Of a stretch of DNA of 64,000 bases, positions 1,343 to 24,984 are shown one piece after another. This DNA is from Candidatus Levyibacteriota bacterium (lineage in GTDB: Bacteria > Patescibacteriota > Microgenomatia > Levybacterales > UBA12049). The stretch is from positions 26,974-90,973 of the forward strand of contig PJMG01000002.1 in NCBI GenBank assembly GCA_003173895.1. Direction: 5' to 3'. Position 1 is the first letter of the stretch. The number at the start of each line of letters is the position of its first letter. The notes below the pieces were generated by a model, which ran no database searches, was not told the origin of the DNA, and saw only the letters and a list, made by a program, of their open reading frames with translations. Made by a program: the position numbers and the translations under genes.

Positions 1343-2496
1343 AATTTATAAGCATCAATAATTTGATTAACTATTAAATTCCAATCATATTTTTTAGCAA
1401 TTGCTACTATTTTTTCTTTATTAAGTGAATGTTTTAATAAATAAGTGGCTTTTTTTGCAAATATTTTTGGATTCAAGTTAATGCTATATCCATTTACTCC
1501 ATTACTAATTAAATCTTTAGCGGCATTTGATGGATCATTGGTAGTGATAACAGGAATACCTAAAGCATTAGCTTCCAAAACTACTAATCCAAAGCCTTCT
1601 CTAGTAGATGGAAAAACAAAAATTTTGGATGATTTAATTAATTGAAATAATTTCTTGTGATCATCAAAAAAACTATATACTTTTATATTATTATTTAAAT
1701 TGTTTAATTCAATTTGTTTAATTAATACTGCTTTTTCAGGTCCATCACCAATAATTAAACATAAAATATTAGGAAATTCTTTTTTTAAAATTTTTACACT
1801 ATCAATTAAAACATTTACATTCTTATGACTTAAAAGTCTGCCTGCGAAAATTAAATCCGAAGATTCCTTATCCTTTTTAATATTTAGAAATTCATTAAAA
1901 TTTATACCACATGGAACAGTAATAACTTTTACATTTTTATTCAATAAAATTTTAAATAAATTTGTAGTATGCGAAGAAATGGAGATGATTTTATCCGGTA
2001 AATAAGAACTAATTTTTTCTATAAATGCTCCTAAAACTCCCATTTTACCCATATAAGAAATCCAATAATCTTTTCCCCACACTTCATTCCATGATGCAAG
2101 AAACTTTTTTCTTTTAAATACGCAAACAATTTTTAGAGGAAATAACACTAAGTGAGGCATGTGATCAGCATCTAAAATATCAAAATCTTCTGAAATTAGC
2201 TTGAAACAGTTTAATCCAAAAAAAATTGCTTCTTTTATAGATCTTCTTTCCCCTGAATATAGTGGATATAAAGGACTAATAGCCTTTAATATTAATCCAT
2301 TTTCTCGCTTAGTCGCCTCACCTTCCCACCATTTCATGGTATAAACAATTACTTGGTAACCCCTTTTAGCCAGTCGGGTAGAAATTTCATAGATACGTTT
2401 TTCTTTACCTCCCTTGTTATATGGATAAATAGCATCACTTACTATTGCTATTTTTTTTATTTTATTAGACAAGGGCTGCAGCATATCAATAGTCAA
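1339..2496 (-). CDS. Glycosyltransferase, GT4 family
   Basis: 385-aa ORF with block PSTREGFGLVVLEANALGIPVITT. It overlaps the downstream GT4 gene by 4 nt. Confidence 0.7.
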   Translation of the reverse strand: MTIDMLQPLSNKIKKIAIVSDAIYPYNKGGKEKRIYEISTRLAKRGYQVIVYTMKWWEGEATKRENGLILKAISPLYPLYSGERRSIKEAIFFGLNCFKLISEDFDILDADHMPHLVLFPLKIVCVFKRKKFLASWNEVWGKDYWISYMGKMGVLGAFIEKISSYLPDKIISISSHTTNLFKILLNKNVKVITVPCGINFNEFLNIKKDKESSDLIFAGRLLSHKNVNVLIDSVKILKKEFPNILCLIIGDGPEKAVLIKQIELNNLNNNIKVYSFFDDHKKLFQLIKSSKIFVFPSTREGFGLVVLEANALGIPVITTNDPSNAAKDLISNGVNGYSINLNPKIFAKKATYLLKHSLNKEKIVAIAKKYDWNLIVNQIIDAYKL

Positions 2497-3262
2497 GATC
2501 AGAACTTATAAAAAAAGGAGCGGATTTTTTACTATAGTCCGTTTGTAATCTATGTGGTTTCCAGAAAATATTTTTAAAAAACATATTTAAAATTATTAAA
2601 CCATCTCTTATAGCTTCCACTTTAGTCTCACCTTCGCGTTTGTCATAAGTTATAGGCACAGAACATATTTCATAACCTAGACGAACCATTTTAGTAATCA
2701 TTTCCATTTCAATAGAAAATCCATCAGATTCTAGATATGGTTTTAGTTCATCAATTACATTTTTTTTCCATGCAAAATATCCACTTAATACATCCGTAGT
2801 ATTTGCGTTATAAAAATGTCTAACTAAAAATGTATATCCCCAATTAGCAATTCTATTTTTTAAAAACAATGAATTCTCCTTTAATTTACCCCCTAATCTA
2901 GATCCTATTACTACATCAGCAAAATCACTTTCTAAAGGTTCTATCATGCGAATGATTTCACTCCCTTTATAAGTATTATCACCATCCAACATGACTATAA
3001 AATCAGTATCCTGACTTAAATAACTAAATCCGGTTCGTAAAGCATTACCTTTACCCTTTTTAGTTTCATTAATAACATAAGCTCCTTTTTCTCTAGCAAT
3101 AGCTTCAGTACCATCAGTAGAATTATTATTTATTACAATAATTTCTATTAAATATCCCAATTGTTTAAGCTTTGATTTTGGAAGATTATCAATGACCTTT
3201 CCTATTCCATCTTCTTCATTATGACATGGGATTAAAACTGTTAACTTTTTATTCATTTTCAT
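2486..3262 (-). CDS. GT2 polyprenyl-phosphate sugar transferase (DPM1/GtrB-like)
   Basis: N-terminal block LTVLIPCHNEEDGIGKVI with a DGD motif in MLDGDNTY. The length of 258 aa fits the DPM1/GtrB type. Confidence 0.7.
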   Translation of the reverse strand: MKMNKKLTVLIPCHNEEDGIGKVIDNLPKSKLKQLGYLIEIIVINNNSTDGTEAIAREKGAYVINETKKGKGNALRTGFSYLSQDTDFIVMLDGDNTYKGSEIIRMIEPLESDFADVVIGSRLGGKLKENSLFLKNRIANWGYTFLVRHFYNANTTDVLSGYFAWKKNVIDELKPYLESDGFSIEMEMITKMVRLGYEICSVPITYDKREGETKVEAIRDGLIILNMFFKNIFWKPHRLQTDYSKKSAPFFISSDLDY

Positions 3263-3415
3263 ACTATTATTTTATGTTTATTAAAAAACATATCAACTAA
3301 CTTAGCAATTACAATGTAAGAAATTGTCGTAATTCTTTTATAGAAAATGTGTAAGAAGATTGTAAAAGTATACTAGCGTCTGGAATTAAAAAGGGTAAAA
3401 TGTTACTATTTCTTT

Positions 3416-4213
3416 ATGAATCAATTATCAATTGATGTAAGAAATGTTTCTAAAATATTTAAAGGATTTACTGCGGTAAATAATATTTCATTCTCAGTAA
3501 AAAAAGGAGAAATTTTTGCCTTTCTAGGTCCAAATGGAGCTGGAAAAAGTACTACTATAAAGATGTTAACCACTCTTCTTAGTCCAACTAAAGGTGAAAT
3601 TTTGGTAAATGGTTTTAATACTCAAAATCAGAAAAATGAAGTTAGAAAATCTTTTGGAATAGTTTTCCAAGATCCTAGCATTGATGACCAATTAACTGCT
3701 AATGAAAATATGAGAATTCATGCTGCTTTATATAATGTTCCAAAGGAAATGGTAAAAGTACGAATAGAAGAACTTTTAAAATTTGTAGATTTATATGATA
3801 AAAGAAATGAGTTAGTAAAGACCTTTTCAGGAGGAATGAGAAGAAGGTTAGAAATAGCCCGTGGTTTACTTCACACACCAGCAGTTCTATTTTTAGATGA
3901 ACCTACTTCAGGATTGGATCCTCAAACTAGAAATAGTATGTGGGAATATATTGAAGCTATTAATAAAGAGAATAATATGACTATATTTTTTACTACACAC
4001 TATTTAGAAGAAGCAGAAAAAAATGCTCAAAAAATCGCTATTATAGATCATGGAAAAATTATTGCTCAAGGAACTTCAAAAGAGCTAGAAAAGCAAACAA
4101 AAACTAAAACATTAGAAGAAGCTTTCTTAAAAATGACTGGCAAAAAAATCAGAGAAGATGAAACTGGAAATGAAATAGCCAAATTAAGAATGGTTATGCG
4201 TCATAGACAATAA
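3416..4213 (+). CDS. ABC transporter ATP-binding protein (ABC-2/Wzt/TagH-like, short form)
   Basis: Walker A is GPNGAGKST. The ABC signature is FSGGMRRRLEIARGL. Walker B is LFLDEPTSGLD. Confidence 0.85.
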   Translation: MNQLSIDVRNVSKIFKGFTAVNNISFSVKKGEIFAFLGPNGAGKSTTIKMLTTLLSPTKGEILVNGFNTQNQKNEVRKSFGIVFQDPSIDDQLTANENMRIHAALYNVPKEMVKVRIEELLKFVDLYDKRNELVKTFSGGMRRRLEIARGLLHTPAVLFLDEPTSGLDPQTRNSMWEYIEAINKENNMTIFFTTHYLEEAEKNAQKIAIIDHGKIIAQGTSKELEKQTKTKTLEEAFLKMTGKKIREDETGNEIAKLRMVMRHRQ

Positions 4214-4219
4214 TTTATT

Positions 4220-4963
4220 ATGAAAGCAATTTATATTTTATGGCTTAGACAAGTTATTAGATATTTTAGAACTAGATCCAGAATAATTGGTGCTTTAGGT
4301 CAACCACTATTATTCTTGTTTGCACTAGGGTATGGATTAGGTCCAATTTTTGCTAAAGCAGGCAATGGAAATTATATAGAATTTTTAGTGCCGGGAGTTG
4401 TAGCACAAAGCATACTCTTTACTTCACTTTTTTCTGGTATTGACGTAATTTGGGATAAGCAATTCGGATTTTTAAAAGAAACTTTAGCTGCTCCTGTATC
4501 TAGACTCGAAATAATGTTAGGAAGATCATTGGGAGGAGCAACTGTAGCTGTTTTTCAAGGAATTATAGTTTTTCTTTTGTCATTTTTAGCAGGATTTAAA
4601 CCCAAAAATTGGGAATCTATTTTTATCATTTTTATTATGTTTTTAATGGCATTATTTTTCACAAGTCTGGGTACAGCTATAGCTTCTCTTTTAGATGATT
4701 TACAGGGTTTTCAACTTATAATGAATTTTTTAGTTATGCCACTTTTTTTCTTATCTGGTTCTCTTTTTCCACTTAATAATGCACCATATGTTTTAAAAAT
4801 TATAGCGTCCTTTGATCCTTTAAGTTTCGGCGTAGATGCTATAAGATTTTTATTAACCGGTACAACTCAATTTGGATTACCAATTGATATAACTGTGTTA
4901 TCTATTTGTACCGTAGTAATGGTAACGATGGGCGCTTGGTTATTTTCCAAAATAGAAATATAA
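4220..4963 (+). CDS. ABC-2 type transporter permease (Wzm/TagG-like)
   Basis: 247-aa protein with 6 predicted TM segments. It sits immediately downstream of the ATPase gene. Confidence 0.7.
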   Translation: MKAIYILWLRQVIRYFRTRSRIIGALGQPLLFLFALGYGLGPIFAKAGNGNYIEFLVPGVVAQSILFTSLFSGIDVIWDKQFGFLKETLAAPVSRLEIMLGRSLGGATVAVFQGIIVFLLSFLAGFKPKNWESIFIIFIMFLMALFFTSLGTAIASLLDDLQGFQLIMNFLVMPLFFLSGSLFPLNNAPYVLKIIASFDPLSFGVDAIRFLLTGTTQFGLPIDITVLSICTVVMVTMGAWLFSKIEI

Positions 4964-4999
4964 AATTATGTGTAAAGATGAATAATTAGAAAGTTAATT

Positions 5000-6082
5000 T
5001 TATTTAAAATATTTATCTCTAACTTTAAGTATAGGTTTTTCTATAAATAAATAAGTTATAGTTGAAGTCAAAAATGTAGATATCAAGGCAAAAGGAATCA
5101 AAACTACATTTGAAAAATGTTTACCTAAAATTACAATTATTAGTGTAAAAATTTCTAAATGAATTAAGTATAAAGAATATGAAATCAAACTAGTCCAAGT
5201 AATAAATTTTCCTAGATATTTAAATCTTTTAAAGAAATTTTCAATCGCTTGGCTATTTTCTATAAAAGGAATTAAAAGAGCTATAATAAAACTGATTATA
5301 CTAAAACCAAAAGTTCGAAGAAAAAAAGACTTATCTAATCCTGATTGCATAAAAACATACGTATAATAGATTCCACTTAATAATAAAAACACAAAGGATA
5401 TCAAGAACACTTTCCCTTTTTGTAATACTTTATAAAAATTATTAAAATTTAACTTTATAAAAGCTAAAAGTACACCAAAAAGTAGTGAATCAAAACGGAA
5501 AGGAATAAAAACTCTAACCACTTCAAACGCTGGATTAAATATTAAGATATAGAGAAAACGCAAAATTATTATGAGAAATATGACAAATATTAATTGAAGA
5601 AATAATTTTCTAGTAGAGTTTTTTAATAAAAATGAAATATAGAAAAATACTGGTAGTAAAAAGTAAAACCATTCTTCTATAGATAAACTCCAAGCTATAC
5701 TAAAAAAGAATCTTTCATTAAGATTGAAATTTTGTAAAAACAAAAAGTGCCATAAATGAAAATTATTATTTTTATAAACTATTTCACTACCGATTATAAA
5801 TAAAATTAAAATTCCATAATATAAGGGTAGTGTTCTTAACCATCTTTTTGCATAAAATTTTTTAACTTTTTCCCAAGAAAAATCTTTATCTAGTGATCTA
5901 AGTCCAATCTGACCAATTAAAAATCCACTTAAAACAAAGAAAATCTCTACACCATAAAAACCTAGAACCTCTAATGGATTGAGATTCACGAGAGCAGGGA
6001 AGAAATAACCTACATGATCAATTAAAACCAATATTATGGCACTGGCTCGAATAAGATCTAATCCGAAGTTTCTTGATTTCAT
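5000..6082 (-). CDS. Acyltransferase family 3 (OafA-like) integral membrane O-acyltransferase
   Basis: N-terminal block FGLDLIRASAIILVLIDHVGYFF is characteristic of Acyl_transf_3. The protein is multi-pass. Confidence 0.65.
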   Translation of the reverse strand: MKSRNFGLDLIRASAIILVLIDHVGYFFPALVNLNPLEVLGFYGVEIFFVLSGFLIGQIGLRSLDKDFSWEKVKKFYAKRWLRTLPLYYGILILFIIGSEIVYKNNNFHLWHFLFLQNFNLNERFFFSIAWSLSIEEWFYFLLPVFFYISFLLKNSTRKLFLQLIFVIFLIIILRFLYILIFNPAFEVVRVFIPFRFDSLLFGVLLAFIKLNFNNFYKVLQKGKVFLISFVFLLLSGIYYTYVFMQSGLDKSFFLRTFGFSIISFIIALLIPFIENSQAIENFFKRFKYLGKFITWTSLISYSLYLIHLEIFTLIIVILGKHFSNVVLIPFALISTFLTSTITYLFIEKPILKVRDKYFK

Positions 6083-6086
6083 AAAT

Positions 6087-6563
6087 TTATCGCATTTTTA
6101 TTTTCTTAGCAGGAATTCCACCAACTATGCACATTGAAGGAACATCTTTAGTAACTACTGCTCCTGCAGCTATTATGGCCCCTTTACCAATGTGTACCCC
6201 TGGAAGTATAAGCACATTTGCCCCAATCCAAACATTATCTTCAATTACTATCCTATTAAATGGGCCAAAACCTTGATCTATAATAGCCTTTTTTTTGTCG
6301 GAAAAATTATGATTGGCCGTAGTGATAAGCGTATTCTGACCAATTAAAACATTATTTCCAATCTTAATTAGACCGTTATATGAGTCTAATTCTACATCGT
6401 GGTTAATGTATAAATTTGATCCTAAATCAATATTTTCACCTCTTTTGAATCTAAAATTACCTAAAATAACCACATCTTTACCCACTGATTTTAGGAAAAA
6501 AGAATTAATAAAAACTCTTATTTTTACAATAGAGTAAAATAGTTTAATACGAAAAAAATACAT
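6087..6563 (-). CDS. Hexapeptide-repeat (left-handed beta-helix) acetyltransferase
   Basis: Tandem [LIV]G hexapeptide repeats are present, for example [41 protein letters not shown]. Confidence 0.7.
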
Positions 6564-6774
6564 AGGCGTATTTTATACTTATAGCAAGCTTTTTACAATA
6601 GACTAAATATTGACTTTGTTTAATTCCAGCAAGCTAATTGCTTATTGCAATCAAGCGTCATTATGCTAAAATATATCTCATAATATGTATTCCAGTAAAT
6701 AAGAAGATACCTGAATTCATTTTTGCTCTGCCCTACGTTTTCTTCGCGTAAGTATTCTGGATAACTTATATGAT

Positions 6775-9700
6775 ATGAGAAAAATATCTGTTGTTATTCC
6801 AGTGTGGAACGAGGAGCAAAATATAGCTTCTTTGGTAAAACGTGTCCATGATAGTCTGTCTAAAGAAAAAATAACTTACGAAATTGTCTTCATTGATGAC
6901 CACTCTACAGATGATACTAAAAAAATACTAAAAACACTTGCTAAGAAATATAATATATCAATTTTTGATAAAGAGGGTAAAAAAGGTAAATCATTTTCTT
7001 TAATAGAAGGTTTTGAAAAAGCTCAAAATGACATTGTAGCTATGATTGACGCTGATCTTCAATATCCACCCGAAGCACTTCCAAAAATGTTAGAAAAAAT
7101 TGAAAAGGGAGAAGCAGATATCGTAGTAGCAAATCGCGTTAAAGTTAATACTTCAAAAATCAGAAAATTTATTAGTCGTAGCTTCCGTTTTATTTTTGGA
7201 AAAGTTTTATTTGGTTTAGAAAATGATATACAAGCAGGATTAAAAGTTTTAAGAAAAGAGTTAATTTATGAAGCTAATATTAACCCAAGTTCTAGCTGGA
7301 CTTTAGACTTAGAGTTGCTTCATAAAGCTAAAAATTTAGGATATGTCATTCAAAATTATGATATATTTTTTGAAAAAAGAAAAAATGGGAAATCTAAGGT
7401 TTCTTTAGTTAAAGCGAGCTTGGAGATAGGACTAAATGCTTTATCTGTAAGACTTAAACCTCTTACACCGACTCATTTACGACCTTCTAGTAGACAATCT
7501 ATGTTAGGTGCAGGAATAAAGCACAGTGGAAGAACTTTTGTCACTCATACTACTCTTCATTATTCTCAATCTGCACTTCAAACATTTATTTTTAAACAGA
7601 AAATTTTTATTTTTATAGCAATAATAGCCACTTTAACCGGCCTTATTTTAAATCCGATTTTAACACTTCAAATAATTATTGGTATTTTAAGTTTTATTTA
7701 TTTTATCGATGTTTGTTTTAATTTTTACCTCATTATAAAAAGTCTTCATCAACCTCAGGAAATAACTACTAGCGAAGAAGAATTAGCCCAAATTAATGAA
7801 TCCAAGCTACCAATTTATTCTATACTCTGTCCACTTTATAAAGAAGCTCATATCATACCACAGTTTTTAGAATCTATTGATAAGCTGGATTATCCGAAAA
7901 ATAAACTTGATGTTATGCTTCTTTTAGAGGAAGATGATCAAACTTCTATTGATACTGTAAAACAAATGCCTCTCCCTTCTTATGTTAGAATGTTAGTAGT
8001 ACCTAATTCTCAACCTAAAACTAAACCAAAAGCGTGTAACTATGGACTAGCATATGCTAAAGGAGAATATTTAGTTATTTATGATGCAGAAGATATCCCT
8101 GATTCTATGCAACTAAAAAAAGCATATTTAGCATTTAAAAAAGTCGATTCTAAGGTTTTTTGTTTACAAGCTAAACTTAATTATTATAATCCTCATCAGA
8201 ATTTATTAACTAGATTTTTTACTGCTGAGTATTCTTTATGGTTTGATATCACTTTAACTGGACTTCAATCAATCAATACAAGTATTCCTTTGGGTGGAAC
8301 TAGTAATCATTTTAAAACCATAAATTTAAAAAAACTAGAAGGTTGGGATCCATTTAATGTTACGGAAGATGCTGATTTAGGAATAAGACTTTTTAAGCAG
8401 GGTTATAAGACTGCTATAATTGATTCTGTAACTTTAGAAGAAGCCAATAGTAAATGGGGAAATTGGTTAAGACAAAGATCTAGATGGATCAAGGGTTACA
8501 TGCAAACTTATTTGGTCCACACCAGAAATAATCTTAGATTTGCTAAGGAAACTGGTTGGCATTCTTTAATTTTTCAGCTTGTAGTAGGAGGAAAAATAGC
8601 TTTTATTCTTATTAATCCGTTCCTTTGGATAACCACGATTGCTTACTTTAGTTTAAATGCTATTGTAGGACCAACTATTGAATCTTTATATCCTCCATTT
8701 GTATTTTATATGGCAGCTTTTTCTTTAGTAGTTGGTAATTTTCTCTTTTTATATTATTTTATGATTGGAGCAGCTAAGCGTGAACAATGGAGTCTTATTA
8801 AATATATTTTTTTAACTCCCTTTTATTGGTTGATGATAAGTATTGCTGGATGCATTGCTTTATATCAGTTACTATTCAAGCCTCATTATTGGGAAAAAAC
8901 CATTCATGGCTTTTATAAAAATAAAAAGAAAGATGATGATTTAGTAGCCCGTGCTGTAGTAGAAACTAGTGCTATAGAAAATATATCATTCCCTAAAAAA
9001 GTTTGGAAGCAATTTACGTCTAAAATTTTAGAGAAATATTTTGGACAAGGTTTTATTTTGATAATTTCCACAATAATTTCCAATATAGTTAATTATTTTT
9101 ATATCGCATATTTAGGGAGAACTATAAGTTTTCAAGATTTAGCATTAGTCGGTTTAATAAATAGTTTTTATTATATTACTAGTATTCCATTTGGAGCACT
9201 ATTCTCGACAGTTTCATATAAAGGAGCATTTATAGAAGGTAAATACGGGAAAAATTCAGCGAGTACATTTTTTACTCATGCTAAAAAACAGGCTAAAATT
9301 TTCACCATTATCTTTGTAGGCATTTGGATTATTTTTTCTCCTTTTATGGCCAGTTTTTTTAACTTATCTAATATTTTACCTATTTTACTTTTTACATTCG
9401 TTTGGATTGGCGGCTCAGCATATTTTATAAATAGAGGATTTATATTTGGAACATTTGGGTTTATTTCTTTATCACTTATTTATATTTTTGAACCAATAAT
9501 AAAATTCATTTTATCTATTATTTTAGTTCATTATAACTTAGCATATTTTACATACGGTAGTATTCCAATATCATTTTTCTTAGGTTTTCTTCTTAGTGAA
9601 TTTTTAGTAAGAAAAAATAAAAAATTAACTAAAGTCGATTTAGGAAATGATAGTAAATTTCCTTATAAATTCTTTTTTATTTCTACTCTATCGGGTCTTT

Positions 9701-13234: not shown

Positions 13235-13235
13235 T

Positions 13236-14153: not shown

Positions 14154-14950
14154 GCGCACTATATATACCAATGAGACGAACTATGTATTTAACTTTAGGC
14201 ATGGTTAATAATATAGTTAAGTTAAAAAATAAAAATATATTTATACTTTGCTATCATAGTATTAGTAATGATGGATGGGCTTTTGCTGTTAGTTTACAAA
14301 ATTTTAAAAAACAAATTAATTATTTAAAAGATAAATACCAATTTATAACTCTTTCAGATTTATTAGATTATATTAATGGTAAAAAGAATATTGATAAACC
14401 TTCAGTAGTACTGACTTTTGATGATGGTTATAAAGACGTATTACAAACAGTTAGTTTTTTAAAAAATAAAAAAATAAAACCAACTATGTTTCTTCTTTCC
14501 GATATTAAGCATGCTAATAGGAAAGAATTAGCTACAAATCGTGCATTTTTAAATAAAGGAGAACTAAAATCATTAATTAAAAATGGTTGGGAACTAGGTT
14601 CTCATACTGCTACTCACGCTAATATGAATACCTTAAATAATAAAGAAATAATAGATGAAATTATTAATTCTAAAAAAACACTTGAAAAAGAATTAAATAT
14701 TTCAATCCAATATTTAGCTTATCCTAAAGGTAAATATAATGAAAAAATTTTATCTGCTGTAAAAAAAGCAAAATATAAAATGGCTCTAACTATGGATGAT
14801 GGAAACATTCAAAAAGGAATAAATATTTATAGAATCCCTAGAATTGGAGTGGATGGAACTCATTCATTTAGTGAATTTAAAAATCTTTTTTTACCATTAA
14901 ATATAAAAGCAAGAGAGATAATTAAATCAGTATTTTATAAACAAAAATAA
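14150..14950 (+). CDS. Polysaccharide deacetylase, CE4 / NodB homology domain
   Basis: VVLTFDDGYKDV matches the Asp-Asp motif. SHTATHANM matches the metal-binding His motif. Confidence 0.75.
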   Translation: MSALYIPMRRTMYLTLGMVNNIVKLKNKNIFILCYHSISNDGWAFAVSLQNFKKQINYLKDKYQFITLSDLLDYINGKKNIDKPSVVLTFDDGYKDVLQTVSFLKNKKIKPTMFLLSDIKHANRKELATNRAFLNKGELKSLIKNGWELGSHTATHANMNTLNNKEIIDEIINSKKTLEKELNISIQYLAYPKGKYNEKILSAVKKAKYKMALTMDDGNIQKGINIYRIPRIGVDGTHSFSEFKNLFLPLNIKAREIIKSVFYKQK

Positions 14951-14965
14951 TACGATAATAAAATT

Positions 14966-16150
14966 ATGAAAAATAAAAAGATATCAATAATAGTTAAATA
15001 CTTTTATCCAGTTACTGCTGGGATAGAAACTAATATCGCTGAAACCTACAGTGTATTGACAAAAAAGGGGTGGAATATTGATATCCATACTTCTAAAGAT
15101 ACACTTACAGAAAAAAATGTATTACCAAATAAAGATATAATTCAAGACCTAAATGTTAAGAGATATCCTTTTAGTAAATTTGGTTACTGGCCAAAAATAA
15201 ATTGGGCCCAAACAGATCTTATTTGTCTCCATAATTTTGATATTTTCCCTCATTTTCAGATACTAGTTTATTTAATGATTCGCAAATGGTTTAAAATAAA
15301 AACTGGCAAAATAGTGCTTACTCCTCATGGAGGTTTTACGCCAGAATGGTCTACATTTTCTTTTATACAAAGAACTATCAAAAAAACTTATCATAAAACA
15401 CTAGGAGCTTGGTTAATCAATAATACTGTGGATGTTACGAGAGCAGTATCTGAATGGGAGAGAGATGAGATCATAAAATATGGAGTTAAAAAAGAATTAG
15501 TAGTCATGATCCCGAATGGAGTAGAAAATGAAGCTTACAAAAATCTAGAAAAATTAGCATCTACTGATATTAAAAGAAAAGTAAAATCATTTAGAAACTA
15601 TATTATACAAATTGGTAGAATTTATAAAATAAAGAATTATGAAACTACTATCCGAGCATTAGCAAAAACTCCAAAAAATTTAAAATATGTAATAGCTGGC
15701 CCTATCCAAAAGGATAAAACCTATCAACAGTTTTTAGAAAAATTAATAGACAAATTAGCTTTAACAAATAGAGTCATTTTTTTAGGTGTAGTTAAAGGTG
15801 TAGATAAATATTATTTAATTAAGCATGCCCAAATGATGGTTCATATGGCACTTTGGGAAAGTTTTTGTAATGTGGTTCATGAAGGACTTAGCCAGGGACT
15901 GGTATGTATAGTCGCTAATAATACTGCACTTCCCTATTTAATCAAAAATGGAATTAATGGCTATTGTTTAGAAACTACAAATGAAAATAAAGTCGCAGAA
16001 AAAATAAATTTTGTTTTAAAAAATAAGAACAGTAAATTTATAATAGATATGGAAAAAAGAAATAGAAAGTATGGTTTAGAAAATTCGTGGGAGAATGTCG
16101 CGTATAAGATAAATGATTTATATAAAAATTTATTAGAGAATAATTTATGA
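14966..16150 (+). CDS. Glycosyltransferase, GT4 family
   Basis: ALWESFCNVVHEGLSQGLVCIVANNTALPYLIKNGINGY is a Glycos_transf_1-like block. Confidence 0.6.
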   Translation: MKNKKISIIVKYFYPVTAGIETNIAETYSVLTKKGWNIDIHTSKDTLTEKNVLPNKDIIQDLNVKRYPFSKFGYWPKINWAQTDLICLHNFDIFPHFQILVYLMIRKWFKIKTGKIVLTPHGGFTPEWSTFSFIQRTIKKTYHKTLGAWLINNTVDVTRAVSEWERDEIIKYGVKKELVVMIPNGVENEAYKNLEKLASTDIKRKVKSFRNYIIQIGRIYKIKNYETTIRALAKTPKNLKYVIAGPIQKDKTYQQFLEKLIDKLALTNRVIFLGVVKGVDKYYLIKHAQMMVHMALWESFCNVVHEGLSQGLVCIVANNTALPYLIKNGINGYCLETTNENKVAEKINFVLKNKNSKFIIDMEKRNRKYGLENSWENVAYKINDLYKNLLENNL

Positions 16151-16911
16151 TAGTAGAAACCATAAAAAAACTTATTAGTTCATTTTTTATTGAAACAACC
16201 GTCGTTATACCAGAGACTAATATGCTCCAAAAAAAAGTTGTTATTATCACTGGAGCAAGTGGCGGTGTTGGCAGAGCTGTGGGATTAACATTACTAAAAG
16301 AAAAGGCAATTGTGATTGCTGCTGGACGCAATATGCAGAGATTACAAAAAATATATAGTAAAAATAATGGTCACGTATTTCTTTTTTGTGCTGATGTAAC
16401 CAAAGAAAAAGATGTTAAAGAATTAGTACGCACAGTAATTAAAAAATACGGCAGAATTGATGCGCTGATTAACTGTGCAGGAGTATTTTTAGAAAAATCG
16501 ATAGAAAATACAACAGAAAAAGAATTCAGCAATATTGTAAATGTTAATATGAAAGGATTATTTTTGATGACGCGTGAAGTAGTACCATATATGAAGAAAA
16601 GAAACCAAGGGTTAATTATAAATATAGGTTCAAAAATCAGTCATAACTCTGGTGTTGCTCCTAAAAAAACGCTTTATGCAATGACCAAGTACGCTGTTGA
16701 AGGATTAAGTATTGCGTTATCGAATGAACTTCATAAATGGGGTATTAAAGTAACCTGTCTTATGCCGGGAACAATTAATACGTTTGTTTCTTTTAAATCG
16801 AAAAAATATCTTTCACCTTACTCTGTAGGTTATATTATTCTTATGATGCTACAACTTGAACAGGTTACATTTGAAAGTATCATTTTTAAATCAAAAAAAC
16901 AATATATATGA
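16147..16911 (+). CDS. Short-chain dehydrogenase/reductase (SDR)
   Basis: TGASGGVGRA matches TGxxxGxG. YAMTK matches YxxxK. The start overlaps the upstream stop as ATGA; an internal Met at 16222 is an alternative start. Confidence 0.8.
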   Translation: MIVETIKKLISSFFIETTVVIPETNMLQKKVVIITGASGGVGRAVGLTLLKEKAIVIAAGRNMQRLQKIYSKNNGHVFLFCADVTKEKDVKELVRTVIKKYGRIDALINCAGVFLEKSIENTTEKEFSNIVNVNMKGLFLMTREVVPYMKKRNQGLIINIGSKISHNSGVAPKKTLYAMTKYAVEGLSIALSNELHKWGIKVTCLMPGTINTFVSFKSKKYLSPYSVGYIILMMLQLEQVTFESIIFKSKKQYI

Positions 16912-18713
16912 AAAGCTTTAAATTAAAAATAAATAAAAAAATATTTAGCAATATAAACCTATCTATACATACTTTTATAAATAAAGTTATTTCCAAAATA
17001 AAAACAAAAGTGACTGTTTTTAAAAATTCGCCATTTTTCTTAGAAAATAAATTTATTTTAGATTATATCTCTAAATTATTTAAAGGTGTAATAAAATTTT
17101 TCCCTAAAAATAAAAGTACATTTATTACTATTTTTACACTGCTAATTTCAATTTTATTTTTCTCGACTATTATTAAAGGTGGCAAAGGAAATCCTATCTA
17201 TTATCAAGTGGAACATAATAAACAAATAGGGGGACCTTTTGAAGATTCTATAAGTTCCGCCAGATATGCTTTAACAGAATCTATTGTTCTAAATCAATCA
17301 CTTTTCCTTTCACCTAGTTTAGCAGAATTTGCAGCACCAGACGTAGTTTATTACAAAGGTAAATTTACTTCGGTTTTTACACCAGGAATTTCATTTTTAG
17401 GTGTACCTTTTTATTTTATTGGAAGTTTGCTTGGATTACCTCAATTATTTACTTATTTTGCTACTATACTTTTTGCTATATTAGATATTTTCCTTATAGC
17501 TAGAATTGCAGTAAAAGTTGGTTCTTCATATTTAGCTGGTATAATTGGCGGATGTATTTTTATATTTTGTACAAACGCTTTAACATATGGAATAAATTTT
17601 ACACAGCATGATGTAACTGCTGCAGTAGTTTTACTGGCTTTACTTAACGCATTCTCTAAAAGAAATTGGATAAATAATACTTTATTTGGTGTTCTAGTTG
17701 GAGCTAGTTTATTAATAGATATTCCAAATATTATTTTTTTGGCTCCTATTGGTTTATATATTTTGGCAAAAAGTTTTAGCTTTAAACAAATCAGAACACG
17801 TACTCAATTAATTTTTAATACTACTATTTTTGGTTTTATAGTTGGATTTATTCCCTTAATAATGCTTTTTGGTTGGTATAATTATCAGACTACTGGCTCA
17901 TATACTAAATTAGCCCAAAGTATAGGTATAACTAGTATGTTTTCTAAAAATGTCCCTCCTCAATTTGCGCCTAATAAACCATCTACGGCTCAACCAGTAT
18001 CTTTTAACTTTAATTTACATATCCCATTTGAAACACGTATTCAAGTAGAGGGTTTATACATTTTACTATTAAGTAACGAAAGATCTTGGATATTTTATTC
18101 TCCAATAGTTTTTGTTGGATTAATAGGCTTTATTTTACTTTATACAAAGATTGAAACACGATCTAAATCGCTGCTTATTTTAAGCATTATTATCGTAAAC
18201 ATACTTTTATATTCTATGTTTGATGATCCTTGGGGAGGATGGGCTTTTGGACCTAGATATTTGATACCTTCAGCAGCACTTTTAACAACTATGATTCCAG
18301 CTGCTATTGATCGTTTTAGGAAAAATATTATATTTATACTGCTATTTGTAATATTACTATATTATAGTATTTGGGTTAATGTTTTAGGAGCTTTAACCAC
18401 GTCTGCTATACCCCCTAAAGTAGAAGCGGTAGCATTACCTACACACATTCCATGGACATATAAATATAATGAACAGCTTATTAGTACTGGATTATTAACT
18501 TCTCTTATATATAATCTTTTTTTAACTAATTTAATTAGTCCCAACTTTTATTGGAATATACTTACAATTTCTATTTTTGTTTTCTTTATCATTTTATATA
18601 TTTTGCAATTTACTAAAACTGATAGAGTGGAATTTTTTCAGTCAATTTCACATGGATTTTATATTAAAAATAAATTTAAGTCAGTTTTTAATAGATTATT
18701 TAAATCACACTAA
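16908..18713 (+). CDS. GT-C fold membrane glycosyltransferase (PMT/ArnT-like), paralog A
   Basis: 601-aa multi-pass protein. Loop motif DDPWGGWAFGPRYLIP is shared with the ORF at 21620. The N-terminal loop is also similar. Confidence 0.5.
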   Translation: MKSFKLKINKKIFSNINLSIHTFINKVISKIKTKVTVFKNSPFFLENKFILDYISKLFKGVIKFFPKNKSTFITIFTLLISILFFSTIIKGGKGNPIYYQVEHNKQIGGPFEDSISSARYALTESIVLNQSLFLSPSLAEFAAPDVVYYKGKFTSVFTPGISFLGVPFYFIGSLLGLPQLFTYFATILFAILDIFLIARIAVKVGSSYLAGIIGGCIFIFCTNALTYGINFTQHDVTAAVVLLALLNAFSKRNWINNTLFGVLVGASLLIDIPNIIFLAPIGLYILAKSFSFKQIRTRTQLIFNTTIFGFIVGFIPLIMLFGWYNYQTTGSYTKLAQSIGITSMFSKNVPPQFAPNKPSTAQPVSFNFNLHIPFETRIQVEGLYILLLSNERSWIFYSPIVFVGLIGFILLYTKIETRSKSLLILSIIIVNILLYSMFDDPWGGWAFGPRYLIPSAALLTTMIPAAIDRFRKNIIFILLFVILLYYSIWVNVLGALTTSAIPPKVEAVALPTHIPWTYKYNEQLISTGLLTSLIYNLFLTNLISPNFYWNILTISIFVFFIILYILQFTKTDRVEFFQSISHGFYIKNKFKSVFNRLFKSH

Positions 18714-18715
18714 AT

Positions 18716-20341
18716 ATGATAAATATTAATCAAATCACTTTAAACGTACCAAACGGCTTATTTAAAAATACGGTTTCTAATTTTTTTAAAAAATATGCAA
18801 TTGTGTTTCTATCCATTATTTTATCTATTATTTCAATTGGTTCTTTTATACTTTTTTATAAAAATGGATTAGGGCTAGCCTACAATGATGCTAGATCACA
18901 TTTAGATATCGGCCGCCGCGTGGTAGAAGGTCTTAAACCAGGATTAGCTCAATTAGGTTCTGTTTGGCTACCTTTACCTCATATGCTCATGATTCCTACT
19001 ATTTGGAATGATTTTATGTGGCATTCTGGTCTTTCAGGTGCTTTACAATCCATGATTTCATTTGTAGGTACAGGTATTATTATTTACGTTTTCCTTAAAA
19101 AACTTAATGTTAACTTTATTGGAAGAATAATTGGTTTATTAGTTTTCGTGGCCAATTGGAACGTTTTATATCTTCAATCAACTGCTATGACTGAATTATT
19201 ACTTATTGGAACTATGACTGCTGGTGTTTATTATTTACTAATTTGGCAAGATTCAGAGAAAATTTTAGATTTAATTAAAGCCTCATTTTGGATAATGCTT
19301 TCTACTTTAAATCGTTATGATGGTTGGTTTTTATTAGTCATGGCAACTATTTTAGTAGGAATTATTACTTTAAGAAAACGCGGATATAAAGTAACTGAAG
19401 GTGTTATATTATTATTTTTAACATTAGCAGGAATTGGAATTGCATTATGGGTTTTATGGAATCTTCTTATTTTTAAAGATCCTTTATACTTTATCTTAGG
19501 CCCCTATTCTGCACATGCTCAGCAACAACAATTATCCCAAGCTGGTAACTTACCAACTAAGCATAATTTATGGCTTTCAACTTTTATATATTATTATGCA
19601 TTGGCTTTTAATGTAGGTATAGTAACACTTATCATAGGATCTATAGGAACTTTATTATTTTATTTTGATAAAAAAATTAGCTCAAACGTAAAGATTATTT
19701 GTTTAGCATTATTTGCGCCACTTATTTTTAATATTATTGCTTTATACTTTGGTTTTTCAGTTCTTTTTATTCAAGGTATTTCTGGAAATACTTGGTTTAA
19801 TGTTCGTTATGGAGTTATGATGGTCCCAACTATTGCTATTTTTATTGGCTATTTAGTAAGTAAACTTAAAAATTTTAGACCTGTACTTATAGGAGTTATT
19901 CTTATGATACTTTTCTTTTCCATGTCTAGTGCTGATGCTGTAACCGTAGATGATGCTAGAGTAGGTTCAAGCCAAGTAAATGTTAGTGCCGCTGGTAATT
20001 GGTTAAATCAAAATGCTAAAAATAAACCAGGATTTGTACTTATTTCTGCAGCTTCTCATGATGCTATAATTTTCTCATCAGGACTTCCAATGAGTAAATT
20101 TATTCATGAAGGAACTGGAGCTTATTGGTTATCTGCTACTAAAAGCCCAGATAGATGGGCTAGATGGATAGTTATGAGAACAAATGATAATACAGATCAG
20201 ACTTGGAAACTGGTTAGTAAATCTCCTGGTTTTAAACGTTTTAAGCTAGTTGGGCACTTCCCATTTGCAGATATTTATGAACTTAAGCCTCAATATCTAA
20301 ATCAACTGGAAACAAAACCTGTTTTCGGAAAACAAAAGTAA
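18716..20341 (+). CDS. Multi-pass membrane protein, possibly a GT-C-like glycosyltransferase
   Basis: 541 aa with about 11 TM helices. An extracytoplasmic loop after TM1 reads YNDARSHLDIGRRVVEG. Confidence 0.3.
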   Translation: MININQITLNVPNGLFKNTVSNFFKKYAIVFLSIILSIISIGSFILFYKNGLGLAYNDARSHLDIGRRVVEGLKPGLAQLGSVWLPLPHMLMIPTIWNDFMWHSGLSGALQSMISFVGTGIIIYVFLKKLNVNFIGRIIGLLVFVANWNVLYLQSTAMTELLLIGTMTAGVYYLLIWQDSEKILDLIKASFWIMLSTLNRYDGWFLLVMATILVGIITLRKRGYKVTEGVILLFLTLAGIGIALWVLWNLLIFKDPLYFILGPYSAHAQQQQLSQAGNLPTKHNLWLSTFIYYYALAFNVGIVTLIIGSIGTLLFYFDKKISSNVKIICLALFAPLIFNIIALYFGFSVLFIQGISGNTWFNVRYGVMMVPTIAIFIGYLVSKLKNFRPVLIGVILMILFFSMSSADAVTVDDARVGSSQVNVSAAGNWLNQNAKNKPGFVLISAASHDAIIFSSGLPMSKFIHEGTGAYWLSATKSPDRWARWIVMRTNDNTDQTWKLVSKSPGFKRFKLVGHFPFADIYELKPQYLNQLETKPVFGKQK

Positions 20342-20342
20342 G

Positions 20343-21614
20343 ATGAAAAAATATGCCCTTACAATTTCTGCATCTATTCTCTTAATGTTTTTTATTTTTA
20401 CATTAGTTTCACATAGTGTAAAATCTAATGTAACTAATAAAACTTTTTGGCCGATTCAATCAATAGATACTATGAAATATTCTAGAGATGATTCTGCTGA
20501 TTCTTCTATTTATCAAAAAATACCAATAATTGTAAGTGAAGTGGCAAACCTTCATGCGAATTATATTTCGATAGATACTCCTTATGATGATCAATTTTAT
20601 CCTGTCCTTAAAGCATGGGTAGATGAAGCCAGACAAGAACATTTAAAAATCTGGTTTAGAGGAAATTTTTCTGCTTGGGAAGGATGGTTCGGATATCAAA
20701 AGTTTAGTAATCCAAATGAAGATCACGCTTTAGTTCATGACTTTATTATTAAACATCCAGATCTTTTTCAAAATGGAGATATTTTTACTTCTGTCCCTGA
20801 GGCAGAAAATGGTGTAATAGGTGATCCACGCGGTTCTGATGAAAAAACTCAACAGTTTAATCAATTTTTAATAACTTCATATAATAACTGTGTTAGTAGT
20901 TTTGAAATTATTCATAAGCAAGTTTCATGTGGTTACTTTAGTGTAAACGGCGATGTAGCAAAAGAGGTTTTAACACCAGAGACAATTAAGCAAATTGGTA
21001 ATGTAGTAGTTATAGACCACTATGTAGATAGTTCTGCTCAAATGGATGTGGATTTGCATTTTTTAACTAATAAATTCCCTAATGCAGAAATAATTCTGGG
21101 GGAATTTGGTGCACCTATTCCGGATATTAATGGAGACATGAATGAAACTCAGCAAGCAGAATTTTTAAATCAATTACTTAATGTTTTTTATGAAAATAAA
21201 AATGTAATTGGTGGAATTAATTATTGGGTAGGTTCAGGTGGATCAACCGCTCTTTATAGAGATGATAATACTGAGAAACCAGCGGTTAAAATAATGCAAA
21301 AGTATTACGACCCTTCAGTAGTAAGTGGAATCGTAACTAATACTGATGGTACTCCATTATCTAATATCTCTATATACGGTATAAATAATTTGCTCTTAGC
21401 CACTACTGATTCCAATGGTAATTATAGTTTTCCGGCTTTTTCAGATTCTCCTATGGAGTTAAGTATTAGTGATCCACATTATCAAAAAATTGATCAGATT
21501 ATTGTACCTAAAAATAGGCAAATGACATACAATATTATACTCTCTCCTAAGAAAACTAATATTATTTATAAAATACGTCTCTTTATAAATAGTTTATTTA
21601 ATTTGTCAAAATAG
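20343..21614 (+). CDS. Secreted protein with a putative clan GH-A-like hydrolase domain and a C-terminal carboxypeptidase-regulatory-like beta-sandwich
   Basis: An N-terminal signal/anchor is present. IILGEFGAP is a candidate nucleophile motif. The C-terminal segment SGIVTNTDGTPLSNISIYG...TTDSNGNYSF resembles CarboxypepD_reg. Confidence 0.35.
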   Translation: MKKYALTISASILLMFFIFTLVSHSVKSNVTNKTFWPIQSIDTMKYSRDDSADSSIYQKIPIIVSEVANLHANYISIDTPYDDQFYPVLKAWVDEARQEHLKIWFRGNFSAWEGWFGYQKFSNPNEDHALVHDFIIKHPDLFQNGDIFTSVPEAENGVIGDPRGSDEKTQQFNQFLITSYNNCVSSFEIIHKQVSCGYFSVNGDVAKEVLTPETIKQIGNVVVIDHYVDSSAQMDVDLHFLTNKFPNAEIILGEFGAPIPDINGDMNETQQAEFLNQLLNVFYENKNVIGGINYWVGSGGSTALYRDDNTEKPAVKIMQKYYDPSVVSGIVTNTDGTPLSNISIYGINNLLLATTDSNGNYSFPAFSDSPMELSISDPHYQKIDQIIVPKNRQMTYNIILSPKKTNIIYKIRLFINSLFNLSK

Positions 21615-21619
21615 ACTGT

Positions 21620-23152
21620 ATGTTTTTAAAAATTAAAAATAATTTTGGTCTAATTTTATTAATTTTCTTTATTAGTTTTATTTATTTTCTTACATTAAGA
21701 GGAGTTAATGGAAATTTATACCCTAATGGAAAAGGTAATGAAAAAATTATATCAAACACTCCTCCTTTTGAGACATCCCTAGAAAGAGGCAGATATGCTC
21801 AAACTATAGCAATTGCTGAGAATCATACATTCATTCTAGATAAATTTAGAAATTTTATAAAACCTGATTTAGCCTGGTATAATGGTCATTATTTTTCTCC
21901 ATTCCCTCCTGGAGTTTCAGTTTTAGCTACACCCTTTTATTTAATTGGTAAGAAGACGCAGTTAAATCAACTTTTTACTTTTTCTACTTCTGCAATTTTC
22001 TCTATTCTTACGGGCATTATACTTATTTTTATTGGTAAAAAAATTAATTTTTCTAATAGATCTATTGCTCTCATGCTTTTAGTTTATTTAGTAGCATCCA
22101 ACGGTTGGGCATATGGAGTAACTTTTTCTGCTCATCCTATTTCTGCTTTTATTATTTCCACTTTTTTTTTACTAGGTCTTAATATTAAACCTGGTAAGAA
22201 TAATATTTTAAATTTTATTTTACTAGGCTTTCTTTATGGATTAAATTTTTATATTGATTATCCTAACCTTTTTATTTTAATTCCCTTATTAATTTGGGCC
22301 GTGTTTAAAAGCTTTTCTAGTCATAATGAGAAGGAAAATTATGAAATTTCTATACCTTCCAGTTTATTATTTATAATTTTGTCATTTTTGGTTTCTCTTA
22401 TACCCTTTTTTATATTTAATTTTCATTATTATCATAAATGGATTGCTCTCACTAATAGTTATAATCTAAAAGCATTGGAAGAAAGAGGAGTAACTTTTTC
22501 TTATAACCATCTTTCTAATAGCCTATTTAATAAAAAATCATATTCTACCAGATTTGATTTTATGAGTATCCCACGTGGAATTTTTACGCTAATTTTTAGT
22601 AGTGATCGAGGATTATTATTTTTCTTTCCTATTTATATCTTTGGATTTTTAGGATTTATAATGGGGCTCTTTAAGAAAAATAAATTTATAATTCCTCTTT
22701 TTCTCACTTTTTTATTTGATTTGCTTTTATATGGTTCGTTTAATGATCCTTGGGGAGGATGGGCTTTTGGACCTAGATATTTAATCCCAGTTTTACCACT
22801 TTTCGCTATATTTATAGGCTTAGCATTTGAATACTTAGAAAAGAGAACAATTTTTAAAATTATTTTTAGTTTCTTATTTATATTTAGTTCTATAGTTGCT
22901 TTAGCAGGCGCACTTACTACTAATGCTGTACCTCCTATTATAGAAAATATTCCAAATACTCCTACTAATTTCATGCTTAATTTTCAATTTTTAATGAATA
23001 ATATGACGAGCTCTTTTTTCTATAATACATTTCTTAGACATATTTTATCTCCTTTCTCTTATTACTTAGCTCTATTATCAGTGACTATTTTAGTGATTCT
23101 ATTTATAATCTGGCTCCCATTATTACATATTGCAAAAAATACGAAAATGTGA
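21620..23152 (+). CDS. GT-C fold membrane glycosyltransferase (PMT/ArnT-like), paralog B
   Basis: Shares NDPWGGWAFGPRYLIP and N-terminal loop similarity with the ORF at 16908. Confidence 0.5.
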   Translation: MFLKIKNNFGLILLIFFISFIYFLTLRGVNGNLYPNGKGNEKIISNTPPFETSLERGRYAQTIAIAENHTFILDKFRNFIKPDLAWYNGHYFSPFPPGVSVLATPFYLIGKKTQLNQLFTFSTSAIFSILTGIILIFIGKKINFSNRSIALMLLVYLVASNGWAYGVTFSAHPISAFIISTFFLLGLNIKPGKNNILNFILLGFLYGLNFYIDYPNLFILIPLLIWAVFKSFSSHNEKENYEISIPSSLLFIILSFLVSLIPFFIFNFHYYHKWIALTNSYNLKALEERGVTFSYNHLSNSLFNKKSYSTRFDFMSIPRGIFTLIFSSDRGLLFFFPIYIFGFLGFIMGLFKKNKFIIPLFLTFLFDLLLYGSFNDPWGGWAFGPRYLIPVLPLFAIFIGLAFEYLEKRTIFKIIFSFLFIFSSIVALAGALTTNAVPPIIENIPNTPTNFMLNFQFLMNNMTSSFFYNTFLRHILSPFSYYLALLSVTILVILFIIWLPLLHIAKNTKM

Positions 23153-24386: not shown

Positions 24387-24417
24387 TTCAATCTAATAAA
24401 TTTGGTATAGTTAACCT

Positions 24418-24984
24418 ATGAACATCATTTTTTTTAATATTCAATGGATGGGATTTAATATTTTTTTAGCACTTTGTGCTTTGGTTTTTGCTAAGCTTAC
24501 TTTTTCTATTAAAAATAAATTTCTTAAAGCTAGTTTTGGAATTCTTTGGATCGCTTTTCTTCCTAATACTATTTATTTATTAACCGATATAATTCATTTT
24601 AAAAGTAGTTTCCTTCAAGCAGATATAATTTCAAAAATTATAGTATCAATACAATATTTAATGCTTGAATTAACTGGTGTTATAACTTTTTTCTACGCTC
24701 TATCACCTTTTGAGCACGCGCTTTATAAGAAATTTAGAACCAAAAAAAATATTCTTAACACCACCATAGTTTTAGTTAATTTTATTATTGCCTTTGGTAT
24801 AGTATTAGGCAGAATACAAAGGATAAATTCTTGGGACTTATTTACTAATTTACAAAGAGTACTAATTATTAGTTTACAAACTTTATTATCTGTAAAATTA
24901 ATGTTTTATACTATTTTGTTTGGAATATTATTAAACTTAATATATTTCAGTTATAAAAAGCTTTTATATAGTAGAAAAAAATAA
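24418..24984 (+). CDS. Small multi-pass membrane protein of unknown function
   Basis: 188 aa with 5-6 hydrophobic helices. No recognisable motif. Confidence 0.3.
   Translation: MNIIFFNIQWMGFNIFLALCALVFAKLTFSIKNKFLKASFGILWIAFLPNTIYLLTDIIHFKSSFLQADIISKIIVSIQYLMLELTGVITFFYALSPFEHALYKKFRTKKNILNTTIVLVNFIIAFGIVLGRIQRINSWDLFTNLQRVLIISLQTLLSVKLMFYTILFGILLNLIYFSYKKLLYSRKK

Follow-up and report, generated by a model that had tools for sequence, protein, structure and literature searches.

We analyzed a stretch of 64,000 nucleotides (the window) from a Candidatus Levyibacteriota bacterium (assembly GCA_003173895.1, contig PJMG01000002.1, positions 26,974 to 90,973 of the forward strand), which has a G+C content of ~29% and whose proteins are most closely related to those of Microgenomates-type Patescibacteria. 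On the plus strand, 13 tightly packed genes form one run at 6775-24984, with intergenic gaps of -11 to +43 nt. This ~18-kb operon encodes, in order, a four-module fusion of 1,564 amino acids (the giant protein), three GT2 glycosyltransferases, a deacetylase-family protein (CE4), a GT4 glycosyltransferase, a short-chain dehydrogenase, the membrane proteins M1 (16908-18713) and M2 (18716-20341), the anchored protein X (20343-21614), the membrane protein M3 (21620-23152), a surface protein and a DUF1361 membrane protein. Upstream of the run, two GT4 enzymes and an AglJ-like GT2 are encoded on the minus strand, followed by genes for an ABC-2 exporter and two acyltransferases. We interpret the locus as most likely serving the building and decoration of a cell-surface glycan, not protein mannosylation in the actinobacterial style.

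M1 and M3 are full-length paralogs (32% identity over ~515 residues, E 2e-62), and the exact string DPWGGWAFGPRYLIP is common to both (nt 18225-18269 in M1 and nt 22745-22789 in M3), which is far beyond chance; the earlier note on this DNA had already read them as clear paralogs. BLASTP found no similarity between M1 and M2 or between M1 and the PMT_2 protein at 48381-49967. Profile alignment with hhalign joins the M1/M3 and M2 families over 297 columns (E 1.6e-5), and profile searches of PDB sequences with the two families returned chance matches only. The sole curated sequence model that detects M1 and M3, and weakly M2, is NF047440, with 60.7, 48.3 and 19.3 bits (1e-16, 7e-13 and 4e-4; the value for M1 is also given as 6.7e-13, below the cut-off).

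The AlphaFold2 (AF2) model of M3, built from 45 sequences, has a mean confidence (pLDDT) of 93.1, and the 20 PDB entries that Foldseek ranks highest for it are GT-C enzymes without exception (probability 0.98-1.0), with ArnT as the best (5f15, 3.9e-5); the GT-C matches comprise ArnT, STT3, Pmt4, ALG9, ALG3, AftA, AftB, Emb and PIG-U. The M2 model (pLDDT 72) matches STT3, ArnT, ALG12, DPY19, PglB and AglB best, and M2 ends in a soluble alpha/beta domain (residues ~417-535). For both models, transporters stayed at a probability below 0.25 and a TM-score of ~0.1, whereas GT-C enzymes reached 1.0. M1 is assigned to the same fold because it is homologous to M3. Hence, remote homology and predicted structure together show that M1, M2 and M3 belong to the GT-C superfamily. 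With M2, the fourth GT-C protein that the earlier note had held possible at 18716-20341 is real by fold and remote homology, and the window holds four such proteins.

The relatives of these proteins point the same way. Counting matches at E <= 0.01 or 0.001, we found that PMT_2 is matched by 6/45 M1/M3 homologs and by 24/42 distant M2 homologs. Because some homologs match PMT_2 though the window copies do not, both families appear by sequence to be divergent relatives of the PMT_2/ArnT-like clan. The first outer loop, which in M3 corresponds to nt 21695-21910, has near-invariant E51, E55 and R56 and invariant R58 and P82-D83 across the M1/M3 family. In M2 it carries the motif YND58ARSHLD, of which D58 does not vary even in homologs as distant as 30-40% identity; the same holds for E160, R200-Y201 and R364. 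Hydropathy gives 9-13 transmembrane segments for M1-M3, and the AF2 secondary structure of both M3 and M2 has a first transmembrane segment followed by a loop with short helices. The findings that the earlier note had named as telling against its idea, matches to families such as transporters and no acidic loop motif, did not occur: the matches are to GT-C enzymes, and invariant acidic residues are present in the first loop. M1 also has a Lys/Asn-rich N-terminal extension of ~70 residues (16908-17120), which neither M3 nor the majority of homologs (500-525 residues) possess; its true start is uncertain because the annotated start overlaps the stop codon of the dehydrogenase gene by 4 nt.

From the DPMS-like GT2 domains that are co-encoded with these transferases or fused to their relatives, we infer that M1-M3 would use a polyprenyl-phosphate-linked sugar donor. 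Two such GT2s occur in the window, as the earlier note had proposed, and both match DPMS, GtrB or ArnC best. The first, at 2486-3262, is a soluble AglJ/DPMS-like protein of 258 residues and a candidate polyprenyl-phosphate-hexose synthase; all of the open reading frames (ORFs) named in that note exist where it placed them, and this one, whose strand it left unstated, lies on the minus strand. It matches Pfam Glycos_transf_2 (1.9e-26) and, below every equivalog cut-off, the NCBIfam models for AglJ (1.6e-52), dolichyl-phosphate hexose transferase (2e-25) and PpgS. Its nearest solved structure is the Pyrococcus furiosus dolichyl-phosphate-mannose synthase (5mlz, 2.3e-13), followed by ArnC, and hydropathy found no transmembrane segment in it.

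The second is domain 1 of the giant protein (residues 1-230, 6775-7464), a GT2 of the DPMS/GtrB/ArnC type. For residues 1-260, 5mlz is again the nearest solved structure (1.4e-27), then GtrB (sll0501) and ArnC, and the NCBIfam matches to ArnC (1.5e-23) and PgfS (5e-21) are below their equivalog cut-offs. The domain contains DADLQxPP, which we take to be a signature of DPMS/GtrB/ArnC-type GT2s, and is followed by a transmembrane segment at residues 267-295 (hydropathy). Domain 2 (residues 348-629, 7816-8661) matches Pfam Glyco_tranf_2_3 and Glyco_trans_2_3, NCBIfam PgaC (4.5e-33, below the equivalog cut-off) and, as the top PDB match, BcsA (4.2e-11). With the motifs YDAED, VTEDADLG and QRSRW and transmembrane segments at residues 595-700, it has, as judged from its sequence, the features of a processive membrane GT2 synthase of the BcsA/PgaC/HAS type.

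Domain 3 of the giant protein (residues 721-1190, 8935-10344) is a 470-residue module with multiple transmembrane segments and a candidate flippase. Among its orthologs, 6/27 match Polysacc_synt_3 (best 9.8e-12), Polysacc_synt or MatE, so that the module is probably a divergent MOP/Wzx-type flippase; hydropathy gives ~8-10 transmembrane segments, compared with ~12 in MOP/Wzx flippases. Domain 4 (residues 1201-1526, 10375-11352) is a GT4 (Pfam Glycos_transf_1, 4.6e-42). A domain of the polyprenyl-phosphate-sugar-synthase type, a BcsA-type synthase and, probably, a Wzx-like flippase are thus combined in one polypeptide.

Fusions in other genomes connect these modules to M2 directly. Outside the Microgenomates group, an exhaustive search with the M2 profile recovered 836 clusters (50% identity, E <= 1e-30), of which we inspected the best 150 representatives. 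A synthase domain of the giant type (45-52% identity) is fused to an M2 homolog in >2,300 proteins, mostly of Ktedonobacteria, among them the cultured Tengunoibacter tsumagoiensis, and some of these fusions carry a GH113 tail. Among the 150 representatives, the DPMS-like domain, the synthase and M2 occur in a single protein (P0295), the DPMS-like domain is also found fused to M2 alone, the N-terminal domain of X is joined to M2 at 41-52% identity, and M2 is fused to GH5, GH113, LysM or CarboxypepD_reg. In one metagenomic locus of Chloroflexota (L085), a GtrA-family flippase gene directly follows the DPMS-like-synthase-M2 fusion. A protein of ~1,630 residues with a PQQ-like beta-propeller and faint GH43_C2 and DUF1349 signals is encoded after the synthase-M2 gene in two Chloroflexota loci (L084:13680-18608 and L085:8967-13859) and may be a further conserved partner.

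M1-type proteins have fusions of their own. In four Microgenomates genomes, CE4 and an M1-type GT-C form one polypeptide, with CE4 joined to the cytoplasmic N-terminus of the GT-C upstream of its first transmembrane segment; elsewhere CE4 is fused to a GT2. A kinase-like domain precedes the CE4-M1-type fusion at least once; proteins of this type (~1,100 residues; kinase-like domain, CE4 and M1-type GT-C) were noted at L007:6606-9941 and also in L043, L056 and L075. This domain (HRDxxxxN, of the aminoglycoside/choline-kinase type) may phosphorylate a sugar or a lipid.

Within the cluster, M2 shows the strongest conservation. It has >2,265 close homologs, of which the best 120 share 62-71% identity with it and carry no Pfam domain. 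We found relatives in 460 GTDB species genomes (the best 80 at 60-71% identity), with record titles, where informative, naming Levy-, Woese-, Ames-, Gottesman-, Davies-, Curtiss- and Chisholmbacteria and WWE3, and at 50% identity all Microgenomates copies fall into essentially one cluster. The operon is near-universal in Microgenomates. Many metagenome-assembled records that contain it bear titles such as 'uncultured Gammaproteobacteria', 'Pseudomonadales', 'Candidatus Eisenbacteria' and 'Bathyarchaeia', which seem to reflect wrong labels given on submission and not a real taxonomic spread.

Comparing the window proteins with the ORFs of 81 M2-bearing loci, we found a recurrent order: giant glycosyltransferase, variable glycosyltransferases, M1-type GT-C, M2, X and surface protein. 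Directly upstream of M2 there is an M1/M3-type gene in 66/74 loci with room for it, mostly with an overlap of 4-8 nt; X is downstream of M2 in 71/81 loci, the Cys-rich surface protein is downstream of X in 54/81, and the giant glycosyltransferase is upstream in at least 46 of the 81. Across these loci, the median identity to the window is 64% for M2, 49% for the giant protein, 39% for X and 36% for M1, with neighbours of M2 at 30-55%. The intervening genes, which encode GT2, GT4, deacetylase and acyltransferase proteins, differ between genomes.

The CE4 polysaccharide-deacetylase-family protein (14150-14950, plus strand; Polysacc_deac_1, 3e-26) is predicted to be cytoplasmic because it has neither a signal peptide nor a transmembrane segment. 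Its gene is present in 26/81 related loci, and a PIG-L deacetylase is found instead in at least one. By analogy with ArnC-ArnD-ArnE/F-ArnT, the presence of such enzymes (CE4 or PIG-L) in the cytoplasm suggests that the pathway has an amino-sugar branch. X (plus strand) is an extracytoplasmic protein anchored at its N-terminus, with a conserved domain of ~270 residues and a C-terminal CarboxypepD_reg, the part that Pfam recognizes. Its N-terminal domain has no confident Pfam or PDB match, but a weak hhalign match to the GH113 tails; with its LGEFGAP motif, it is possibly a clan GH-A glycosidase. X has no similarity to the weakly GH5-like ORF at 25586.

The surface protein (23196-24386, plus strand) consists of a signal/anchor, a Cys-rich domain of ~100 residues, an Asn/Ser/Gly-rich linker, an fn3 domain (Pfam) and two C-terminal transmembrane segments. 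The Cys-rich domain (FPSC..GTHGIVGD..QCFC..GIQTNWWK..WGL) is without a Pfam family. Most homologs in the alignment end in LAxTGN, a transmembrane segment and a basic tail, i.e. a sortase-type signal; the window protein and the L007 copy have instead a Cys-containing end with two transmembrane helices.

Extracytoplasmic glycosylation fed by a polyprenyl-phosphate sugar is well supported by these results. We further consider it probable that the operon builds a glycan and that its GT-C enzymes glycosylate the product of the synthase outside the cell. Under this model, which draws on sequence, structure models and analogy, domain 1 of the giant protein would load a sugar onto polyprenyl phosphate inside the cell, the BcsA/PgaC-type domain would make and export a beta-glycan, and the Wzx-like module would flip polyprenyl-phosphate sugars outward. 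The additional GT2 and GT4 enzymes, the cytoplasmic CE4 and the dehydrogenase would diversify the sugars; CE4 may turn a polyprenyl-phosphate N-acetylhexosamine into the hexosamine form, as ArnD does for Und-P-Ara4FN. M1, M2 and M3 would then take the flipped sugars and transfer them to the nascent glycan on the outer face, X, as a membrane-anchored GH-A-like protein, could trim or remodel the polymer, and the surface protein, presumably wall-anchored in most relatives, would accompany the system. The synthase product is proposed as the acceptor of M2, M1 and M3 because the Chloroflexota fusions and the GtrA neighbour tie M2 to the synthase and to the DPMS-like domain. Some fusions carry GH113 tails, a hint of a beta-mannan-type polymer; the characterized GH113 enzymes known to us all act on beta-mannans.

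A more specific proposal, which we advance tentatively and hold to be somewhat doubtful, is that a BcsA-like synthase obligately paired with a dedicated GT-C of the M2 family constitutes an undescribed mode of synthase-dependent glycan assembly. M2 would then branch the emerging polymer with the polyprenyl-phosphate sugar of the DPMS-like domain or ligate the polymer to the wall. In that case, a major, previously undescribed polymer in the envelope of these ultrasmall bacteria could be the product.

Several results weigh against the glycan-decoration model. Pfam gives no useful match for the window copies of M1, M2 or M3, even at E up to 10, and NF047440 detects them at 19-61 bits against a cut-off of 200 bits. 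The confidence of the M2 model is low precisely in the conserved first loop. The flippase assignment draws on the 6/27 orthologs, and the window copy of the module has no Pfam match. The nearest solved relatives of CE4 are Bacillus CE4 enzymes and PgaB, not ArnD; because it is not ArnD-like, a lipid-linked substrate is proposed for it by analogy only. The fusion to the synthase does not tell decoration of a polymer by M2 from transfer of the polymer en bloc, and the co-conserved surface protein with its low-complexity linker could be the true acceptor.

This last point bears on the alternative closest to the earlier note, i.e. protein O-glycosylation like that of the Ppm1/Pmt pair, in which the DPMS-like GT2 makes polyprenyl-phosphate mannose or another hexose and the GT-C enzymes modify Ser/Thr/Asn-rich linkers such as that of the downstream surface protein. 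The DPMS-like domains it requires are present, a surface protein with a G/S/N/P-rich linker follows in 54/81 loci and has a sortase-type anchor in most relatives, and PF02366 (PMT) or TMEM260-like models are weakly matched by a few homologs (PF02366 by 1/45 for M1/M3 and 2/42 for M2). Streptococcal GtrB with PgtC2, and the Pgf system, which glycosylate Ser/Thr-rich disordered regions, are precedents (PMC12041528). However, M1, M2 and M3 themselves, like the 48381 protein, have no PF02366 match even at E up to 10, Pfam finds no MIR domain in M1, M2 or M3, and the motifs in the first loop are PD in M3 and YND in M2, not the DE of GT39 Pmt, so that the equivalence to Ppm1/Pmt drawn in the earlier note is not supported. 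The window surface protein also lacks a sortase signal, and the link to mannose depends on unverified mutase and isomerase assignments. The partners fused to M2 homologs (BcsA-like synthase, GH5, GH113 and LysM) are related to glycans and point to a glycan acceptor rather than to the protein acceptor proposed before. Hence, although surface proteins with linkers rich in Asn, Ser and Gly do occur and the co-conservation of one of them leaves some room for a protein acceptor, we regard protein O-glycosylation as unlikely to be the main function.

The mannose part of that proposal fared similarly. An extracytoplasmic system that runs on a polyprenyl-phosphate sugar is well supported, but not the identification of this sugar as mannose: no GDP-mannose pyrophosphorylase was found by the Pfam scans, which covered part of the window ORFs. 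The putative phosphomannomutase at 27460-28818 does belong to the phosphoglucomutase/phosphomannomutase (PGM/PMM) superfamily, but it scores below every NCBIfam cut-off and PMM, PGM and GlmM cannot be told apart. The candidate mannose-6-phosphate isomerase at 31257-32177 gave a weak SIS signal and no PDB relative, and we did not adopt this assignment. Moreover, the mutase/isomerase-type genes at 27460-32177 lie beyond holA, outside the operon.

Another alternative is that M2 resembles a ligase or an oligosaccharyltransferase (OST) and transfers a lipid-linked oligo- or polysaccharide en bloc to cell wall, lipid or protein, with M1 and M3 as decorators; here the DPMS-like domain would start the glycan, which the synthase and the variable GT2/GT4 enzymes would extend before its export. 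STT3, PglB and AglB are the best structural matches of M2 and have a C-terminal soluble domain like that of M2. The conservation of M2 at 60-71% beside variable glycosyltransferases would fit a glycan that varies on a carrier and an acceptor that are conserved. P0295, with its order DPMS-like, synthase, M2, agrees as well, and no phosphoglycosyl-transferase initiator was found among the window ORFs scanned. However, the TM-scores of M2 to OSTs are modest (~0.45-0.5, from a model with a pLDDT of 72), a WWDxG motif of the WWDYG type is absent from the M2 sequence and consensus, and the profile search of PDB sequences returned no OST. In addition, the GtrA-family gene beside the L085 fusion is typical of the flipping of polyprenyl-phosphate monosaccharides. 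We therefore judge en bloc transfer by M2 to be rather improbable. That M1, M2 and M3 are transporters or structural membrane proteins, for which the missing Pfam matches and a marginal FtsX match of M3 (E 0.008) could be cited, is effectively excluded by the Foldseek results and the PMT_2-matching homologs, along with the invariant Asp, Arg and Tyr residues in the loops.

The genes around this core are as follows. The two GT4 enzymes (197-1342 and 1339-2496, minus strand) match Glycos_transf_1 (4e-41 and 9e-37), and the ABC-2 type exporter (3416-4963, plus strand) has an ATPase and a permease (ABC_tran 1.8e-37, ABC2_membrane 1e-32) and is Wzm/Wzt- or TagGH-like. An Acyltransferase_3 membrane O-acyltransferase and a hexapeptide acyltransferase lie at 5000-6563 (minus strand). 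Within the operon, Pfam identifies the three cytoplasmic GT2 enzymes (11470-14153), the GT4 (14966-16150), the short-chain dehydrogenase (16147-16911) and the DUF1361 membrane protein (24418-24984), all on the plus strand; the DUF1361 gene, the last of the run, is not conserved in related loci. Promoter and terminator scans did no better than with shuffled sequence.

A second module lies on the minus strand at 47136-50824 (Pfam and PDB), with a GmaR/SunS-like GT2 (50075-50824), the PMT_2 GT-C (48381-49967; 40.7 bits against a gathering score of 26.1, in line with the earlier note) and a Wzy_C/O-antigen-ligase-like protein (47136-48353). We rejected the PMT_2 protein and its GT2 neighbour as a Ppm1/Pmt pair, since this GT2 has GmaR (1.7e-18) and SunS as its best PDB matches and is not DPMS-like. 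GmaR is a flagellin O-GlcNAc transferase and SunS an S-glycosyltransferase. An Asn/Ser/Thr-rich Ig-like surface protein (46448-47161) adjoins this module. Elsewhere, the 609-residue protein at 32235-34064, beside enolase (34076-35329), has weak PPDK_N and PEP-utilizers signals (E 0.001-0.3) and may be a divergent PEP-utilizing enzyme. Housekeeping genes comprise an operon for an F-type ATP synthase (subunits alpha, gamma, beta and a; 51017-57214, minus strand) and a single tRNA-Thr(CGT) at 46342-46414, a tRNA-Thr being the one Rfam match in the window.

The envelope of Patescibacteria is the interface of these episymbionts with their hosts, and its chemistry is essentially unknown. The M2 relatives in the cultured T. 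tsumagoiensis give an experimental handle on this system. If the partnership of synthase and GT-C holds, it would extend the catalogue of bacterial polysaccharide assembly routes and define two new GT-C families for annotation. A literature search on GT-C enzymes or these glycosyltransferases in Patescibacteria (the candidate phyla radiation), or on LA_3751, found nothing relevant.

Among known systems, the window data fit the scheme of multi-component transmembrane glycosylation, in which a GT-A enzyme loads a sugar onto polyprenyl phosphate, a flippase moves it out and the sugar is finally attached to a wall polymer by a GT-C enzyme; examples are CsbB/GtrB with GtcA/GtrA and YfhO/GtrX, and GacI/J with GacK (Wzx-type) and GacL (PMC8035078). 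Like these, the locus would combine a GT-A polyprenyl-phosphate-sugar synthase, a flippase (maybe Wzx-type, as is GacK) and GT-C enzymes acting on a glycan outside the cell, with an ABC-2 exporter and cytoplasmic GT2/GT4 enzymes nearby. Unlike these, it has three GT-C proteins from two families without a Pfam model, and the M1-type gene and M2 are adjacent and translationally coupled (66/74 loci). Also unlike these, the synthase, the probable flippase and the polyprenyl-phosphate-sugar synthase are in one protein of 1,564 residues, and the polymer would come from a BcsA-type processive synthase, not from an undecaprenyl-diphosphate-linked rhamnan or teichoic acid pathway.

The ArnC-ArnD-ArnE/F-ArnT pathway for aminoarabinose (PMC12690121) offers a second parallel. 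Each comprises a GT2 resembling DPMS, a CE4-family deacylase in the cytoplasm (as predicted for the window protein) and a GT-C resembling ArnT; the M3 model matches ArnT best, and CE4 is physically fused to M1-type GT-C proteins in four genomes. However, CE4 is not specifically ArnD-like here and is present in 26/81 related loci, and ArnA/ArnB sugar-nucleotide genes are absent. A lipid A acceptor is not expected in these organisms. Bordetella LgmA/B/C and mycobacterial PpgS/Rv3779 are related to the Arn pathway.

The actinobacterial Ppm1 and Pmt (GT39) pair shares with the locus a DPMS-like GT2, the GT-C fold and acceptor candidates with low-complexity linkers, but M1-M3 have no PF02366 match and no MIR domain, and the fusions point to a glycan context. 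With BcsA-BcsZ of cellulose and PgaC-PgaB of poly-N-acetylglucosamine (PNAG), the locus has in common a processive GT2 with QxxRW, an extracytoplasmic glycosidase-like protein and a CE4 deacetylase, which is predicted to be cytoplasmic here rather than periplasmic. We know of no characterized synthase-dependent system with a dedicated GT-C enzyme fused to the synthase or encoded with it. The Leptospira model NF047440 ('LA_3751/LA_3752 family putative glycosyltransferase'), which detects M1-M3 far below its cut-off, describes a family that is itself uncharacterized. Hence, the kind of system is already known, and what is new is two GT-C families without Pfam coverage, a giant fusion of four modules, and the conserved pairing of a GT-C and a processive synthase, which across phyla takes the form of a fusion.

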